Virus record (IMG/VR): IMGVR_UViG_3300016471_000834
Location: 23,766-87,765 of that record
Direction: 5' to 3' (one strand)
DNA: 64,000 nt
Origin: a virus
Lineage: Duplodnaviria > Caudoviricetes
Within the stretch, counting starts at the first letter, position 1. The number at the start of each line of letters is the position of its first letter. Shown here piece by piece: positions 5,648-15,878 of the stretch. Below the pieces are notes generated by a model. The model was given only the letters and a program-made list of their open reading frames with translations. It had not been told where the DNA came from and made no database searches. Made by a program: the position numbers and the translations under genes.

Positions 5648-6990
5648 GGCATCACCTCGTTGGTAAGAACTCCCCCCTCGCGCACGAGGTAGGTCGTGAT
5701 GAGATCTTGAACCGGGAAAACCCAGAATGTCAACAAAACTGTTGCTTGTTGCTCATATATACCCCCGCTATCGGGTGCTGTATCGTTGAATTCGTCAACC
5801 AGCACGACTTCAACGACTTCTCCCGACGCCGGGCTGAGCATTGCCCGGTATCCAGCAGAGGTGAACCACGCCCGCAAAGAATCGACCAGGCGACCAACAT
5901 CGGAACGCAGCTCTCCGATCACTCGCAGGTTCAGCCGGCGACGCACATGCGTGCGAGCTGGCATGACGAGGGCCGTTGGCGGGTCCGCATACAGGTCGCG
6001 GATGTAGATGTCCTCTCCGCCGTCGAGGGCATCCTCGATGGACTGGCCGAGCACCAGCACCGATGGCAGTTTGTCGACCTGTACAATATCCCGGTGCTGG
6101 GACACGACGATATGCGGAGCATACCGAAACTCGAGCCGATAGGCGTGTCCGGATGGGATGGGATCGTCAGGAGTCCATACGCCATCGGCGTAGACTCCTG
6201 ACAGCTCTGTCTCTTCCGCAGGGTCCGCGGTCTGGTCAAACGCAGCGTCCACCCCTGTGACATCGTAGGTCCACTCGTCGCCTGGTACCGCAATGGAAGC
6301 GAGCTCGCTCTCGGCGGTGGATTCGATGACCCCGGTGGCGCTGATGCTCGCCCGCAGGCTTGCCAGGACTGTGCGGACCAGGGCGTCATCGTAGGCATCG
6401 ATCTCGACGCATCCATACGCGAGCCGCGCCCCGTAAAAGGATGGAGTCACCTCTGGATCGTCCGTGGAGAGCTTGACCACGATCTGGATGATCCTGCTCG
6501 ATGCCGAGAGCCCGGCGATGTTGCTCTGCAGGAGCTGCCCGGTGGACCAATGATCATCGGTCGTAGCCACTGCCCAGGCCGTCCCGTTCCACCACCATTC
6601 GTCTGAGCCATCAAACACGCGGAAGCTCACTGCGCTGCCCGTTGGAGCCTCCCAATAGAGCTCGAGCGCCTTCCAGGCTCGAACAGCAGATGCCTCGAGC
6701 ACAGGAGTGCGAGCGGTGCGAGATCCCCCTGCAAAGTCATCGTCGATCACGTAGTGGCCGCTGACCTTTGGCAGCCTAGCTCGAGCCGTGAACATCATGC
6801 CTTTGCAGGCGTTGAAAAACATCCCTCCCAGCCCACTGCCCGCGGTATAGGAGGGGGACAGGAGCTCCCATAGCACATCTTCGGAGTCAGGGCCTCGCTC
6901 GAGATCGGGCACATCCTGGCCGCTGTACAGACGCAACGTCTTTTCATCCAGGAGCAGGTCGGCCACATGAATCTTGAGGACTCGAGCCAT
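5644..6990 (-). CDS. Putative tail terminator/neck protein with extra N-terminal domain
   Basis: Directly upstream of the sheath. The C-terminal half has the tail-completion-like pattern (LPSV..., L.L.V....R.D..RL...L...F). Assignment is mostly by synteny. Confidence 0.5.
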   Translation of the reverse strand: MARVLKIHVADLLLDEKTLRLYSGQDVPDLERGPDSEDVLWELLSPSYTAGSGLGGMFFNACKGMMFTARARLPKVSGHYVIDDDFAGGSRTARTPVLEASAVRAWKALELYWEAPTGSAVSFRVFDGSDEWWWNGTAWAVATTDDHWSTGQLLQSNIAGLSASSRIIQIVVKLSTDDPEVTPSFYGARLAYGCVEIDAYDDALVRTVLASLRASISATGVIESTAESELASIAVPGDEWTYDVTGVDAAFDQTADPAEETELSGVYADGVWTPDDPIPSGHAYRLEFRYAPHIVVSQHRDIVQVDKLPSVLVLGQSIEDALDGGEDIYIRDLYADPPTALVMPARTHVRRRLNLRVIGELRSDVGRLVDSLRAWFTSAGYRAMLSPASGEVVEVVLVDEFNDTAPDSGGIYEQQATVLLTFWVFPVQDLITTYLVREGGVLTNEVMP

Positions 6991-11151: not shown

Positions 11152-12447
11152 TTAGAACTCCTCAACCGGGATGACCACGCCGTCCTGTAGAACCATCGCG
11201 TCGGGGTTGAAGAGAATGACGTCCATCTCCCAATAAACGTCGAAGCGAATCCGCTCGAACTCCTGCTCAAACTTCCGGTACACTCGGACGCCACCGTCCC
11301 CGGACCGGGTGCACATGACGAAGCAGATGTTCTTGGGGTTCGTCAGAATGATGGACGTGCAGTCCACCACGTCAAGCGTGTAGTCGCTCGCGGTCGTGCT
11401 GATGGTCGACTGGCCCAGGGTGCCCGACGCGGTCACGTACAGGTGGCTGGACTCTGCCGTCACGCTCAGCGTCTCGCTCTTGCCGGTGGCCACGCAGGTG
11501 AGCTTGACCTGGCGTCCGACGTGAGTGCTGTTGTACCCGCCGAAGAGCGTATCCACCTGGGCCTTGACCTTGCCGGAGCTGTTGGTCACGGCGTCCGCTG
11601 CGGACGTGCTCTTGTTCAGGGTGCTGAAGCCCTGGGTGTTCGGAAGCTGGGGCACCAGCAATGGCGCGATACCCTGGGGATTGTACCGAAGCCGCTGCTC
11701 GGTGAGGCCCCGCAGAGAGCCAGCGTTACCCTGAGCGGCGAATTCGTTGACCTCCCAGGTGAACTCCTGGTCGATTCCGGGGTGGACCATGAACCGCAGA
11801 TTCGGATCGTCGACATACTCGACCGGCATCTTCTGCTGGATGGCCTTCCACACGTTCCTGGCGTAGGTCTTCCCGTAGTCCGTGGTCCGCCGAATGGCCT
11901 TCGACCGGGCCTGAACCAGCACACCATCGGACCCAACCAGGAGGCGATTCTCCCTGGTGCTCAGATCGGTGATGGACTTGTCGCCCCGGATGATGACCTT
12001 ACCGAGCGAGTTGGCGAGCTTCCGAGCAAACAGGGTGACCACGGCCTGCTGGAAGTTCTGCGTCCCCGACGCCCGTGCCTCGCTGATGTCCTCGAGGGTC
12101 AGGTAGAAGGTGGACTGGTACTTCGTACAGGAATAGGCCCGACGATCCATGCTTGGGCTCGAGGTGATGGTCTTGCCGTCGTTCTCCTTGACGGCCTCCG
12201 CCACATCGCCGCTGATGTCTACGGTCGGAATCTCGCCAGACCGCTGCTCGCGCAGCCGATAGCTGACCTGGCTCAGCCACTGCACATTCGCCGTCGCCAG
12301 CACGACGAGAGATTCGATCTGGGGCCGGTTCATAAACTGACCGACCTGCACGGACGATGTCGTGATGACGCTCGGCTCCGCAGCCTTCAGCGCATCATGC
12401 CCGGCAAGCGTGGCTCCGGCGCTGTTCAAAAGCTCCTGGTTATTCAA
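11152..12447 (-). CDS. Major capsid protein (HK97 fold)
   Basis: 431 aa after scaffold. 'ITTSSVQVGQFMNRPQIESLV...', 'FARKLANSLGKVIIRGD...DGVL' and C-terminal 'IILTNPKNI...RVYRKFEQEFERIRFDVYWEMDV' match large-phage capsid proteins. Confidence 0.9.
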   Translation of the reverse strand: MNNQELLNSAGATLAGHDALKAAEPSVITTSSVQVGQFMNRPQIESLVVLATANVQWLSQVSYRLREQRSGEIPTVDISGDVAEAVKENDGKTITSSPSMDRRAYSCTKYQSTFYLTLEDISEARASGTQNFQQAVVTLFARKLANSLGKVIIRGDKSITDLSTRENRLLVGSDGVLVQARSKAIRRTTDYGKTYARNVWKAIQQKMPVEYVDDPNLRFMVHPGIDQEFTWEVNEFAAQGNAGSLRGLTEQRLRYNPQGIAPLLVPQLPNTQGFSTLNKSTSAADAVTNSSGKVKAQVDTLFGGYNSTHVGRQVKLTCVATGKSETLSVTAESSHLYVTASGTLGQSTISTTASDYTLDVVDCTSIILTNPKNICFVMCTRSGDGGVRVYRKFEQEFERIRFDVYWEMDVILFNPDAMVLQDGVVIPVEEF

Positions 12448-12485
12448 AATACAACCCTCCTACTGAATGAACGCCGACGCCACGA

Positions 12486-14198
12486 TTACCGAGTGGCCGT
12501 CAGACCGGTGAGGTCGAAAACGGACCCGGCGAAAATGTCATTGCCCTTGACCGCAGACTCTCCACCGCCACCACCCGGCAGTGAAACTGGGGGCCGCGGA
12601 GCCTCCCTGAGCTGCTTCAGTTCGGCGGTAACCTGATCGAGCTGAGCCTTCATCGCCTCCACGCCCTGGCCCCCCTGTCCATGGGTCTGAGCCTGATCGA
12701 TGGCGGCCTTGAGTGCGGCAAGCTGCTCGGGCTTTGCCGCCTTGAGGGCTGGCACGATGGTGTTTGTGTCCAGAGCCCCCATGAGCCCGCGCTGGAACAT
12801 TCCCAGGAGGTCTGGCGGAGTGCCATTCAGGTTCTGCCCAGAAAGCTGCCCTGCCAGAGCGTCCTGAATCATGGACGGCTGTGGCTCGCCCTGCACAGCG
12901 GCCTTCATGGTGGACTGGTAAACCTCAAGCCCCTTGGCCGCCAGTTCCGCGTCGGTCGCCTTGGGGTTCAGGGTCTTAAGAACTTCAATCGCACCCTTGG
13001 CGGCAGCCTGAGAATACTGGACTGCCTGCTCGGGGCTCATCGGCTGCTTCGCCATGTTAACACCCTCCGACGCCGATGGCGTCTGGTTGTAAGACTTGGC
13101 CGCAGGGGAACACTTCCCCTTGTCGGCTCCGGTCGCGGTTTCCCCTCCAATGCTCTCATCCTCAGAGGAAGAGGAAGTACCATCCACCGCCAACAGCTCA
13201 TCGAGAAGAGAGAGCACCATCTCGAGGCCAGTCTTCATATCGGCTCCCTTGGACTTCGCTTCATCGAGCTTCGCCCGGGTGGCCTTCGAAATCGTTCTGC
13301 CAGCCTTCATCACTTCCATCGAGGTGGAAGCGGACATCCGGCTGGATGCGCACATCGTTGCGCAGGTGAGGCAGGTGCTTGCACACGCCTTGGCCTCAGC
13401 GAGATCAGACCCTGCACAGGCCATTGCACAGGCTCGACAGGCCATCTCGCACATCACGAGGGCCATCGGAGCAAACGACGAACTCCTATTGCAGAGTTGA
13501 ATGCAAAGGGAACAGATGTCAACACATTCTTGGCAGGCGCGAATGCAAGCACCCATATCCGCGACGTTTGCCTGGTTCATGCAGGCGGAGATACACAACT
13601 GGCATGCTCCGATACACGCCTGGCAACAGGCAACGATGGAGGCCGTATCCATCGTCATCGCCTTGATAGCCTTCGCGGCAGCGGCCAAAGCCTTCCGCAC
13701 AGTCGCATTTTTGGCTGCAGCCAGCGGAGCAACGATAGACATCAGGTGACGATGGAACTGAGTGAGAGCAGCGTCTACTGCAGCGACTTTGTCGGGAACA
13801 GCCTCATCTTCGAGGATGTTCCGGATCACGTCCTGCAAAGCGTCTGTCGACCGCCAGAGGCCGTTGTTCAGCGTGTTGACGGCGAGAGCCGCATCAAAAG
13901 TGGTAGCGTCCACCGACTTCGTTGCACCTGCGAGGAACGCTTCACCGAGCGCGCCACCGCCGAACCACTCAGCCGGGCTGATCATCCGCTGGTACCAAGC
14001 GAGCTTCACGCCAGGAGTGAACGTGATGGGCGCGGAGGTATCGGACTTCGCCGTGACGGTCCTGCGGTTGGCGCCGGCCGGCACAAGAGAGACGAACGCC
14101 CGGTCTCCGTCCATCTGAGGATGGGACATGATGGTGAACATCGGCTTACCAGCCCCATCACGGGGGAGTTTGTCCAGCATTTCGGCGTTGTCAGGCAT
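12486..14198 (-). CDS. Capsid scaffolding protein with embedded Cys-rich four-helix-bundle (Csp/DUF326-like) domain
   Basis: Between protease and MCP. N-terminal 'FVSLVPAGANRR' motif (seen after XkdF-type proteases), helical Ala/Gln-rich C-terminus, and 20 Cys in CxxxC/CxxC spacing at about 13350-13630. Confidence 0.7.
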   Translation of the reverse strand: MPDNAEMLDKLPRDGAGKPMFTIMSHPQMDGDRAFVSLVPAGANRRTVTAKSDTSAPITFTPGVKLAWYQRMISPAEWFGGGALGEAFLAGATKSVDATTFDAALAVNTLNNGLWRSTDALQDVIRNILEDEAVPDKVAAVDAALTQFHRHLMSIVAPLAAAKNATVRKALAAAAKAIKAMTMDTASIVACCQACIGACQLCISACMNQANVADMGACIRACQECVDICSLCIQLCNRSSSFAPMALVMCEMACRACAMACAGSDLAEAKACASTCLTCATMCASSRMSASTSMEVMKAGRTISKATRAKLDEAKSKGADMKTGLEMVLSLLDELLAVDGTSSSSEDESIGGETATGADKGKCSPAAKSYNQTPSASEGVNMAKQPMSPEQAVQYSQAAAKGAIEVLKTLNPKATDAELAAKGLEVYQSTMKAAVQGEPQPSMIQDALAGQLSGQNLNGTPPDLLGMFQRGLMGALDTNTIVPALKAAKPEQLAALKAAIDQAQTHGQGGQGVEAMKAQLDQVTAELKQLREAPRPPVSLPGGGGGESAVKGNDIFAGSVFDLTGLTATR

Positions 14199-14766
14199 GT
14201 GCCTCTCCTCCGGTCCGTACAGTCACAAGGGTTTTGTTGACGAGGGTCTCGAAGGATACTGCCTCGAGCACACCGGAGTCAACCATGAGCCATTCGGGCG
14301 TGCCCGGCTGAATCTTCACGACCAGCACCCAGCAGCCAGGAAAAAAATTGGGGGAGGCGATCTCCGGAGTGTTCACGAAGCTCTGCACGACCTTCAACCC
14401 CTCTCGAGGCTGCTTGTCGTGAAAGGCGTCCAACTTCCGGCTGTGGACCAAGAAGTCCTCGGCCATCTTGATGAGGTCATCTTGCAGCATGACCTCCCCC
14501 TGGCTGTCGATTGGATCGAGCGCCAGTCGGGCAAGGTCAGGCTGTGCAGCTATGACCTGGCGATAAGCGTCGCGCTGTGTCAGCACAGTATTCGCGGTCA
14601 TCAGTGCTTCGACCTGGGTCCAGAAGTCCGAGAACGCCTTGGGATCGAACGGGAGGTATACTTCAGCGTAGATAAGTCCTTCCTTGAGGACACCGCCATC
14701 AGTGCCCTTCCGAACTCGAGCGATCTTGACTTGCGCTCTGCTCACGCGGTCGACAGCCTCAGCCAC
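14191..14766 (-). CDS. XkdF-like prohead serine protease
   Basis: 'LIYAEVYLP...D.QGE......I.KMA.DF......D.FHD......VV.SF......F.PG.WV..VK....W..V.SG.L.A.SF' pattern. Confidence 0.8.
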   Translation of the reverse strand: MAEAVDRVSRAQVKIARVRKGTDGGVLKEGLIYAEVYLPFDPKAFSDFWTQVEALMTANTVLTQRDAYRQVIAAQPDLARLALDPIDSQGEVMLQDDLIKMAEDFLVHSRKLDAFHDKQPREGLKVVQSFVNTPEIASPNFFPGCWVLVVKIQPGTPEWLMVDSGVLEAVSFETLVNKTLVTVRTGGEAHA

Positions 14767-14853
14767 CTACGATCCCTTTCAAAATGGATAGCGTAGTCCG
14801 GATTGCAAACGGTTCACCCACCAACATTAGCGATAGACTACGCACACACTCTA

Positions 14854-14883
14854 AGGATATGACTGCTTTCAACGAAGCGTCAA
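14854..14883 (-). promoter_or_regulatory. sigma70-like promoter upstream of protease/scaffold/capsid
   Basis: TTGACG-N18-TATCCT in a low-GC intergenic stretch. Confidence 0.45.
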
Positions 14884-14921
14884 TAAAATCCATGTAGGCT
14901 GTGCCTGTTTTCTGCACAGTC

Positions 14922-15878
14922 TTAGCGGATGAGGATCTGCGAGCGACAGAACATGTGCTGGGGGGGCATGATGACACCCATCGCAACGAGCTCAGGAGCG
15001 CTCAAGAGCGCTCCCGTCGCGTCCGTGATGTCGGAAACCTTGACCCAGGGGGCGATGGCCTTCCACTCCTCCGGGTCCTGGGCCTGAAGTAGACGATCGC
15101 GAAGGTCTATGGCGTGTTCGACTCGAAAGATGGTCCCGTTCAGCGCCTCGCACACGGGAGACGTGCGCTCGTCCATCGGGTTGACGTACTCGTACTCTTC
15201 CACCTCGATGTTGACCATCGTGGAGAGGGACCCGAACGTGCGCGCCCGGGTCGTGATGACGTGGCTGAACCCCTTCCAGTAGCTCTCACTCCGCTTGAAG
15301 ACGGCGTTCTTGAACATGCTGGCCAGCTTCTCGCCAGCTGCTTCAGCGCCATATCCCTTCTCGAGCACCATCTCGCGAAGCACATCGTCAATTACCCCCT
15401 GGGGAATGACGTCGCCGTAGTGCTTCCCGACCCAATAGATTCCATTCCGGTTCAACCCGGCGATAGCGTCGGCATCGGCCACCCCGAAGGACATGCTGAC
15501 GTTCGCCGCCGTGGACATCTCCTTGAGGCCCAGCTTGTACGAGCCCCGAAGCGCTGGCAGCAGCAGATCCTTGTCATCGTCGGTCAGTTGTATGCCAGCG
15601 GCTATCAGCGCTTCGCGTAGCGAAAGCATTTCCCCGGTAACGGCGGCAGCTCTCTCTGCGATGGTTCCAGGCCGATCCGAGATGGCAGCAATCTTCCTGA
15701 TGGCTGCTCCGATGAGGGGGCCGGCTGCCGTGGAGAACGCATCGATCAGCAGCTTACTCAGGCGAGATGTCAGGACGGTGTAGCTGGGGGGGGAGGCTTT
15801 GATCCCTGCGACTGCGCACATAAGTCCGTGCGCGTCATCAGCTGCCTGTACCAAAGGACTGTCCAGGTCAAAACACAC
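14922..15878 (-). CDS. Phage Mu F / SPP1 gp7-like minor head protein
   Basis: 'TRARTFGSLSTM....VEEYEYV.PMDERTSPVC..LNG..F...PPQHMFCRS' motif; GGAGG RBS before GTG. Confidence 0.85.
   Translation of the reverse strand: MCFDLDSPLVQAADDAHGLMCAVAGIKASPPSYTVLTSRLSKLLIDAFSTAAGPLIGAAIRKIAAISDRPGTIAERAAAVTGEMLSLREALIAAGIQLTDDDKDLLLPALRGSYKLGLKEMSTAANVSMSFGVADADAIAGLNRNGIYWVGKHYGDVIPQGVIDDVLREMVLEKGYGAEAAGEKLASMFKNAVFKRSESYWKGFSHVITTRARTFGSLSTMVNIEVEEYEYVNPMDERTSPVCEALNGTIFRVEHAIDLRDRLLQAQDPEEWKAIAPWVKVSDITDATGALLSAPELVAMGVIMPPQHMFCRSQILIR

Follow-up and report, generated by a model that had tools for sequence, protein, structure and literature searches.

To our knowledge, copper storage proteins (Csps) are the only known bacterial proteins in which a bundle of helices holds Cu(I) by the tens, and we know of only two physiological roles that have been shown for them, the supply of copper to pMMO and the supply of copper to the spore-coat oxidase CotA. 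Here we describe a homologue of the cytosolic Csps (Csp3) that sits inside a phage gene, whose 570-aa product is probably the scaffolding protein of the capsid. The gene lies in the window, a 64,000-nt stretch of Caudoviricetes DNA (bases 23766-87765 of the 87,765-bp linear IMG/VR virus record IMGVR_UViG_3300016471_000834, from a freshwater metagenome; 86% complete by CheckV). An earlier note, made from the letters of the window, had described the block as a 20-Cys bundle of the Csp/DUF326 type embedded in the capsid scaffold.

All characterised Csps are tetrameric, whether apo or Cu(I)-loaded (PMC10155185, PMC5171941). Their capacity scales with the number of Cys residues, and the thiols of Csp3 resist oxidation in air (PMC5171941). 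The sole non-Cys ligand of the Csp3 core is an Asp or Asn at Cu13 (PMC5171941, PMC10155185). Classical Csp3s carry an H-x3-H-x-H motif in helix 3-loop-helix 4, followed by a Cys, at the bundle's mouth, although the His motif is dispensable for Cu(I) to be taken up and removed quickly (PMC10155185). Although the non-classical RkCsp3 has neither the motif nor three of the mouth Cys, it binds 17 Cu(I); Met60 and Cys71 form an extra site at its hydrophobic end (PMC10155185).

The phage domain (aa ~183-290 of a 570-aa open reading frame, ORF) resembles the classical Csp3s (BsCsp3/YhjQ 5FIG and 6WKT; MtCsp3 5ARM/5ARN; SlCsp3/Ccsp 6EI0) in its ~105-aa length and four-helix topology, a gapless alignment at 31-39% identity, 15-16 conserved core Cys, the shared C-I-R...E-C-x-D-I-C and R-x-S-x-F motifs, the lack of a signal peptide and a predicted tetramer. 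Classical Csp3s stand alone, whereas the phage domain has conserved phage domains on both sides; it also lacks the three His and the following Cys, has four extra Cys, and is lower in charge and richer in Ala. Like the non-classical Csp3s (RkCsp3 6ZIF, NmCsp3 3LMF), it is without the His motif and the equivalent of MtCsp3 Cys111, and its helix 2 offers additional sulfur ligands as it nears the hydrophobic end (PMC10155185). Unlike RkCsp3, it keeps the mouth Cys of helices 1 and 2 and has no His in helix 1-loop-helix 2. Both sequence and fold are nearer to BsCsp3, with a Foldseek template modelling (TM) score of 0.53 to 6ZIF compared with 0.83 to 6WKT. The exported Csp1 and Csp2 of methanotrophs (MtCsp1 5FJD; TIGR04401) have the same fold and Cys-lined core; unlike Csp1, the phage module is an internal domain with no Tat signal, has 20 rather than 13 Cys and reaches 20 bits where the family cut-off is 100. 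Csp3-type bundles are also encoded on a few viral contigs (L255-L257, L145, L214), but as separate genes of 107-146 aa, most of which keep the His motif that the phage module has lost.

Several lines of evidence establish that the block is a real homologue of Csp3. A phmmer search of all PDB sequences with aa 181-300 returned 21 distinct matches, all colinear, consisting of Csp3, Csp1 and Ccsp chains of solved structure, DUF326-type proteins from structural genomics and engineered fusions of one of them. The best match is Bacillus subtilis Csp3 (5FIG; E 7.5e-11), gapless over residues 7-105 of both. Cellular Csp3s were gathered by the shared motif C-I-R-x3-E-C-x-D-I-C, which gave a set of at least 120 loci that is biased toward Bacillales; nearly all encode ~108-112 aa with 16-20 Cys. 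Over ~100 aa, the phage segment shares 32-39% identity with the matches listed from this set; among cellular sequences in general, the best listed reach 33-39% in Bacillales and 35% in a sample of 401 Pseudomonadota genomes. A profile hidden Markov model of 91 cellular Csp3s aligns to the segment without a gap over positions 4-106 of its 109 and gives it 54.4 bits, so that the profile match on which the earlier note had staked its reading does exist. Shuffles that keep every Cys in place score 5±6 bits (maximum 26), and those that keep both the Cys and the motif used for gathering the set score 23±6 (maximum 39; z = 5.3 for the real segment). Because even these last shuffles fall far short of the real score, the match rests on more than the cysteine pattern.

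The cysteine pattern itself is far beyond chance: relatives of the phage protein have 0-2 Cys each, and the 54 bits of the segment against the Csp3 profile fall to -19±4 when its residues are shuffled with their composition preserved. The ORF encodes 21 Cys, of which all but one lie in a 93-residue block with spacings of 1,3,4,3,4 / 12 / 4,3,4,3,4 / 14 / 4,3,4 / 11 / 4,3,4. They form four ladders of 6, 6, 4 and 4 residues in a/d register, one per helix, and their core-facing orientation is deduced from that register. The surrounding aa 181-300 contain 12 Met and no His. The 20 Cys map to aa 191-283, or 13628..13350 of the window, so the coordinates (13350-13630), sequence and count of the earlier note were exact. 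The bundle at 13302-13646 is weakly charged and Ala-rich, as though suited to packing on another protein.

A column-by-column comparison with 59 cellular Csp3s shows which copper ligands are kept. Fifteen of the 20 Cys stand in columns where Cys makes up at least 90%, C192 stands in one where it makes up 49%, and every core column that builds the central clusters is kept. The four extra residues are C191, C222, C232 and C236. C222 replaces the Asp or Asn that ligates Cu13 in most Csp3s, whereas C232 and C236 lengthen helix 2's a/d ladder in the direction of the hydrophobic end. The mouth is altered: the three His columns (98%, 90% and 98% His in Csp3s) are S264, L266 and E268 in the phage module, and the Cys column after the motif (98% Cys) is A269, so that the classical mouth signature is absent and the earlier remark that the Csp His ligands are largely missing extends to all three. 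This loss is not disqualifying, because RkCsp3 binds its 17 Cu(I) without the motif. The comparison with classical and non-classical Csp3s therefore marks the module as a hybrid, with a classical core and the mouth Cys of helices 1 and 2, no His, and a longer thiolate lining.

The predicted fold agrees with this assignment. An AlphaFold2 (AF2) model of the module, built with an alignment (A3) of the 59 cellular Csp3s, has a mean predicted local distance difference test (pLDDT) of 93.7 and a predicted TM score (pTM) of 0.86, with helices at 5-27, 32-57, 63-82 and 87-119 (model numbering), the last of which runs into the conserved helix of the scaffold. Foldseek against the PDB ranks Cu(I)-BsCsp3 (6WKT) first (TM 0.83/0.93, root mean square deviation 1.1 Å), and ranks 1-42 are Csp-type chains throughout; the earlier note had asked for a structural match, and this is one. 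Because the input alignment consists of Csp3s, the model speaks for compatibility with the fold rather than as independent proof. A single-sequence AF2 model of the full-length protein was poor (pLDDT 45.6) and was used for secondary structure alone. When four copies of the module were predicted together, the interface score ipSAE was 0.82 (runs 0.82, 0.77 and 0.83) as against 0.02 for the best of three controls, with contact agreement of at least 81% and partner pLDDT of at least 82; among the calibration cases, the mark was attained by 20 of the 30 solved pairs and by 1 of the 23 single chains. Csp tetramers have already been solved, so this pass may reflect likeness only. The residues predicted with confidence to form the interface lie on helices 1-3 and none on helix 4, an arrangement that, in the models, suits a bundle inserted in a linker with helix 4 running on into the scaffold.

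The block is a clean in-frame insertion of 122 codons into a phage protein family. A word-index search with the whole protein (P0001) retrieved its own cluster and one Csp-less relative, P0003, a 452-aa protein from an ENA metagenome that is 67% identical over aa 1-163 and 44% identical over aa 374-536. P0003 has no Cys block; a zinc ribbon sits in its linker. An exhaustive phmmer search of 1.84 billion representatives with P0003 gave 93 matches, of which ~50 are true relatives of 300-490 aa with 0-2 Cys each, and its Cys-rich, low-scoring matches align to the zinc ribbon alone. In a 35-sequence alignment (A1; N-domain invariants S37, V39, G42, A43, N44 and F101) the insertion columns are occupied in P0001 only, between the N-domain and the K-A-G-R-x-I-S helix. 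Excision of the 366-nt unit would leave the K-A-G-R motif of the family intact, as it is in P0003. The unit opens with Met codons that align to the starts of cellular Csp3s and ends a few residues past their C-termini, boundaries that fit the capture of a whole gene. A GAAGGCT repeat brackets it, although this is suggestive only, because a shared word of at least 7 nt occurs in 8% of shuffles. G+C content and G+C at third codon positions (GC3) are 0.58 and 0.67 in the insert and 0.61 and 0.70-0.72 in the flanks; as these values lie close together and no donor among the matches listed is more than 39% identical, the insert was not freshly acquired from a donor of low G+C.

In P0003, aa 226-250 form a C-P-x-C...C-x-x-C ribbon after the K-A-G-R helix (Pfam Zn_Ribbon_1, E 1.7e-5, in one A1 member). 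Cys363 of the phage protein, the only Cys outside the block, lies in a K-C-S-P-A remnant that aligns with the first knuckle of this ribbon. The ribbon and the one-Cys remnant together imply that the linker has hosted two different Cys-metal modules in this clade.

The assembly across the insertion is sound. For the source run, Logan's independent assembly has an 80,123-nt contig that does not differ from the window over 12400-14900. The study's second sample has contigs that span the right junction (12921-13443) and the left junction (13497-14900), again without a difference. The fused architecture is known from this one phage, in two samples of one study. Two further runs, X3 and X4, hold parts of the gene, but neither reaches into 13324-14160, and missing cover there says nothing about absence of the insertion.

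Other sequences hint at variation around the gene. The cluster representative P0002 (430 aa, on a 60,502-bp contig) ends in E-V-T-S-P-P, so that the conserved C-terminal half is truncated; this is the ending expected from the loss of one T in the T-run at 12918-12923 (codons 426-427, GTT TAC, minus strand). The second-sample contigs break at 12913/12921, the same place as this T-run; a population variant or a sequencing error could explain the missing T. The contig at 12921-13443 has a word depth of 3.1, with 6.9-8.9 in the flanking ones, a hint of heterogeneity that is not interpretable from contigs. A soil metagenome of 2023 (run X4) supplied a 151-nt contig, at a depth of ~2, that matches 13222-13311 with 9 differences and then departs from the window precisely where the insertion ends on the right, and other X4 contigs match perfectly over 12887-13037. 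A close soil relative may have a different sequence in place of the Cys block.

The coordinates of the insertion, the domains that flank it and the neighbouring head genes are collected in Table 1.

Table 1. Features of the gene that carries the Csp3 module and of its neighbours, in window coordinates
Feature	Position	Strand	Evidence
Probable scaffolding protein P0001, 570 aa	12486..14198	-	Between protease and capsid genes; family alignment A1; phrog_17741 and non-protease part of phrog_3017
Conserved N-terminal domain of scaffold-like family, aa 1-170	13689..14198	-	67% identity to P0003 over aa 1-163
Direct repeat GAAGGCT, left copy, 7 nt	13668..13674	-	Repeat analysis
In-frame insertion unit, 122 codons/366 nt, aa 176-297, one repeat copy counted	13309..13674	-	Columns filled only in P0001; repeat analysis
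Predicted four-helix bundle, aa 185-299	13302..13646	-	AF2 pLDDT 93.7, pTM 0.86; Foldseek
Cys-lined core, 20 Cys, aa 191-283 (93 residues)	13350..13628	-	Residue count and column analysis against cellular Csp3s
Direct repeat GAAGGCT, right copy, 7 nt	13302..13308	-	Repeat analysis; comparison with P0003 and A1 consensus
Conserved K-A-G-R-x-I-S helix directly after insertion	13251..13310	-	A1; phrog_3017 matches aa 283-323
Low-complexity linker, aa 340-385, with lone outlying Cys363 (13110..13112)	13044..13181	-	Aligns to first knuckle of P0003 zinc ribbon
Conserved C-terminal half of scaffold-like family, aa 386-570	12489..13043	-	44% identity to P0003; invariant A403, Q440, Q451
XkdF-type (Peptidase_S78_2) prohead protease, translationally coupled to scaffold gene	14191..14766	-	Pfam E 4.6e-7; phrog_15223 E 6.7e-17
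MuF-like minor head protein	14922..15878	-	Pfam/PHROG library matches
Major capsid-like protein	11152..12447	-	phrog_1623 E 4.3e-21 and weak Phage_capsid match

The window has a G+C content of ~60% and nearly all of its genes are on the minus strand, where the order MuF, XkdF protease, 570-aa ORF, capsid places the ORF where a scaffold gene is found. Library matches bore out the names that the earlier note had given to these three neighbours. The ATG of the ORF is preceded at 7 nt by a Shine-Dalgarno sequence, GGAGGAG, and the ORF overlaps the end of the protease gene, stop codon included, by 8 nt; genes for a head-tail adaptor, a neck protein and a sheath-like protein follow further down the minus strand. 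Within A1, 22 of the 35 members match the non-protease part of phrog_3017 (best 1e-11) and 16 match phrog_17741, an unnamed family. XkdF-type scaffolds and protease-scaffold fusions of these two groups share the gene position, a helical, Ala/Gln/Lys-rich composition and the K-A-G-R-x-[IL]-S helix; the other members of the family (~50 representatives) differ from the phage protein in having no Cys-rich block, and one carries the zinc ribbon. Searches for a Pfam family or a PDB relative of the host protein found none, which counts against the scaffold assignment. Because the family has neither a Pfam entry nor a solved structure, the name scaffold is drawn from the order of the genes, the coupling to the protease, a helical composition and a weak resemblance to PHROG families. 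The earlier placement of the block inside the capsid scaffold thus holds as to the gene and its position, and the protein is probably a scaffold by its context.

Some leads around the locus were followed and dropped. The idea that the scaffold N-terminus copies the last strands of the protease was rejected (hhalign probability 0.4%). TerL is just 25-29% identical to its counterparts in cultured phages, which have mixed hosts; with TerL so distant and the listed cellular Csp3s at most 39% identical, neither a donor nor a host is named. Elsewhere in the window, a 565-aa protein at 21033-22730 matches phrog_12882 (PAPS reductase-like; E 5.8e-145); if an iron-sulfur enzyme, it would count among the phage proteins sensitive to copper.

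A survey for the same insertion in other phage scaffolds, which the earlier note had proposed, was carried out and gave no second case among the ~50 relatives, nor in INPHARED, IMG/VR, GTDB genomes, JGI metagenome contigs or protein collections. The word-index search with the domain alone retrieved its own cluster only. tblastn of INPHARED with the whole protein, the capsid protein or the family member P0012 gave no match, and neither did pattern scans of IMG/VR with P0001, A1 and A2 or of GTDB genome contigs with A2. A2 and a degenerate N-N-G-L-W-R-S-T-D pattern picked out 10 loci in JGI metagenome contigs, none of them related. The ESM Atlas had no usable match to the whole protein and, for the domain, only Csp clusters at 0.76, which serve as a lead. 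A strict Csp motif gave no matches in IMG/VR; a loose 7-Cys pattern gave 120 loci, of which just two are real Csp3s, both stand-alone, so that chance matches dominated this survey. A search of the open literature returned nothing on Csp/DUF326 in phages or on metal-binding scaffolds.

The stand-alone viral genes include one at 5953-6393 of a 100,284-bp IMG/VR contig (L257), a divergent Csp-like gene of 146 aa with an acidic tail, which adjoins NAMPT and NadM/Nudix genes of NAD salvage and appears to be a genuine phage accessory copper-storage gene. The sole matches to the domain in INPHARED, under the name 'Acinetobacter phage MD-2021a' (L254, CAKLQH020000032.1), were rejected as phage Csps since the contigs are from bacterial chromosomes. 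On the L254 contig, which is mislabelled as phage, a stand-alone DUF326 gene has xseA, a tRNA, CueR, a P-type ATPase and a copper chaperone for neighbours.

How the fusion arose and what it does can be proposed as follows. A complete cytosolic csp3-type gene would have been captured in frame into the central linker of the scaffold, just before the K-A-G-R-x-I-S helix. The inserted module should fold as a Cys-lined four-helix bundle that keeps the thiolates of the three Cu4 clusters of the Csp3 core, adds four Cys in the a/d core register and dispenses with the His motif at the mouth. Since its N and C termini are at the end opposite the mouth, such a bundle can sit in a linker with its mouth exposed. 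Each chain would most likely take up on the order of 15-20 Cu(I) in the reducing cytosol, and the module may tetramerise as the characterised Csps do, tying scaffold chains into tetramers if the full protein behaves as the isolated module is predicted to. As scaffold is made in large amounts late in infection, the module could act as a high-capacity Cu(I) sink, to be removed or retained with the scaffold as the XkdF-type protease matures the head. The earlier note had suggested copper loading and a gating of assembly by metal or redox state, both of them putative functions. We consider it likely, with some reserve, that the module still binds many Cu(I) and tetramerises, which would make the abundant late scaffold a copper sink and a hub for oligomerisation at once.

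A number of observations weigh against this reading. Pfam gives no match to the whole protein at E<=1. For the isolated segment, hmmscan with Pfam DUF326 (PF03860) gives 16.2-17.1 bits relative to a gathering cut-off of 20.4, and a six-frame search gives 17.4 bits for a single repeat and exceeds 20.4 only when repeats are summed (22.9 bits). NCBIfam TIGR04401, the Csp1 family, scores 20.1 bits, which places the segment outside that family. The Csp/DUF326 identity claimed in the earlier note stands by sequence, fold and predicted tetramer, but curated Pfam and NCBIfam thresholds are marginally reached or missed. The AF2 model and the tetramer prediction share the Csp3 alignment and resemble solved structures, and hence depend on the homology call. 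The block is also unlike cellular Csp3s in composition (D+E+K+R 10% as compared with 28%, Ala 21% as compared with 13%). No other copper gene was found when HMA and multicopper oxidase were searched for in the phage record. Finally, no relative bearing the insertion was found in any collection searched; with zero such relatives, retention under selection is not demonstrable and the insertion could be recent and neutral.

Some of these points would suit a bundle that is a purely structural module for oligomerisation or spacing, recruited as a stable, constitutive tetramer, with metal binding irrelevant to the phage. The scaffolds of well-studied phages such as P22 function as dimers and tetramers, and Csps are tetrameric with or without Cu(I) (PMC10155185), in keeping with the tetramer prediction for the module. 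Its low-charge, high-Ala surface suggests new packing contacts, and the lack of HMA and multicopper oxidase genes in the record fits a module with no copper role. However, a pure structure has no need of 20 Cys. All core ligand columns are kept, and four Cys have been gained in the core register, one of them at the only non-Cys ligand site of the core. Such a gain favours a module that has retained its metal chemistry over one that is structure alone, and we regard the structural explanation as unlikely, if worth keeping in view.

Alternatively, the module may be some other metal or redox device, for Zn(II), Ag(I), Cd, Hg or an iron-sulfur-like cluster, or a disulfide sensor, or head cargo that enters the next host. 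The zinc ribbon of P0003 in the adjoining linker and the aligned one-Cys remnant in the phage protein give this idea some substance. On the other hand, the conserved ligand geometry is specific to Cu(I) thiolate clusters. Scaffolds normally exit or are degraded ahead of DNA packaging, which speaks against cargo, and the resistance of Csp3 thiols to oxidation in air speaks against a redox sensor (PMC5171941). Taken together, these points make such a device improbable.

The insertion could also be a recent, neutral or mildly harmful hitch-hiker, or belong to a defective genome variant, and have no adaptive function. It is a singleton with no second lineage in any collection searched, an allele with a 1-nt deletion that truncates the same gene is present in the database, and the second-sample contigs break inside and beside the gene. 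Yet the frame is intact over 570 codons and identical in two samples at depths of ~3-12, and the base composition of the insert and its distance from every donor listed are not those of a fresh acquisition from a low-GC source. We give this explanation little credence.

The weakest alternative, an assembly chimera of a bacterial csp3 and a phage gene, which the earlier note had itself raised, is effectively excluded and can be put aside with near certainty: although the record was assembled from a metagenome and GC3 dips slightly in the Cys block, the independent assembly is identical, the second sample bridges both junctions, and the insertion is in frame and restores the family motif at its boundary.

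The locus has a real, well-supported and unusual architecture, a known Csp family in a new setting. The Csp3 module in a phage scaffold would be the first link of the Csp family to virus assembly and the first example of a scaffold with a metal-storage domain. As a natural Csp variant that is His-free, low in charge and has 20 Cys, it informs the question of how Cu(I) enters and leaves such bundles, and a scaffold linker that tolerates a folded insert of 122 residues is relevant to the engineering of cargo into capsids.

If the copper-sink reading is right and the module binds copper, the buffering capacity late in infection would, by a rough estimate from ~15-20 sites per chain and typical scaffold copy numbers, exceed the usual copper content of a cell. 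Copper stress is used by protists, by macrophages and in water treatment, and such a capacity would bear on how phages survive it and on hosts that depend on copper. A broader proposal, speculative and in our view rather unlikely, is that the procapsids of some phages are copper-loaded or copper-scavenging compartments and that Csp bundles have been grafted repeatedly onto proteins of the procapsid interior. If true, hundreds of copies per particle would provide thousands of Cu(I) sites, an analogue of metal storage by encapsulins and ferritin, and copper-loaded procapsids could shield assembly and phage iron-sulfur enzymes or move copper into or out of the infected cell.

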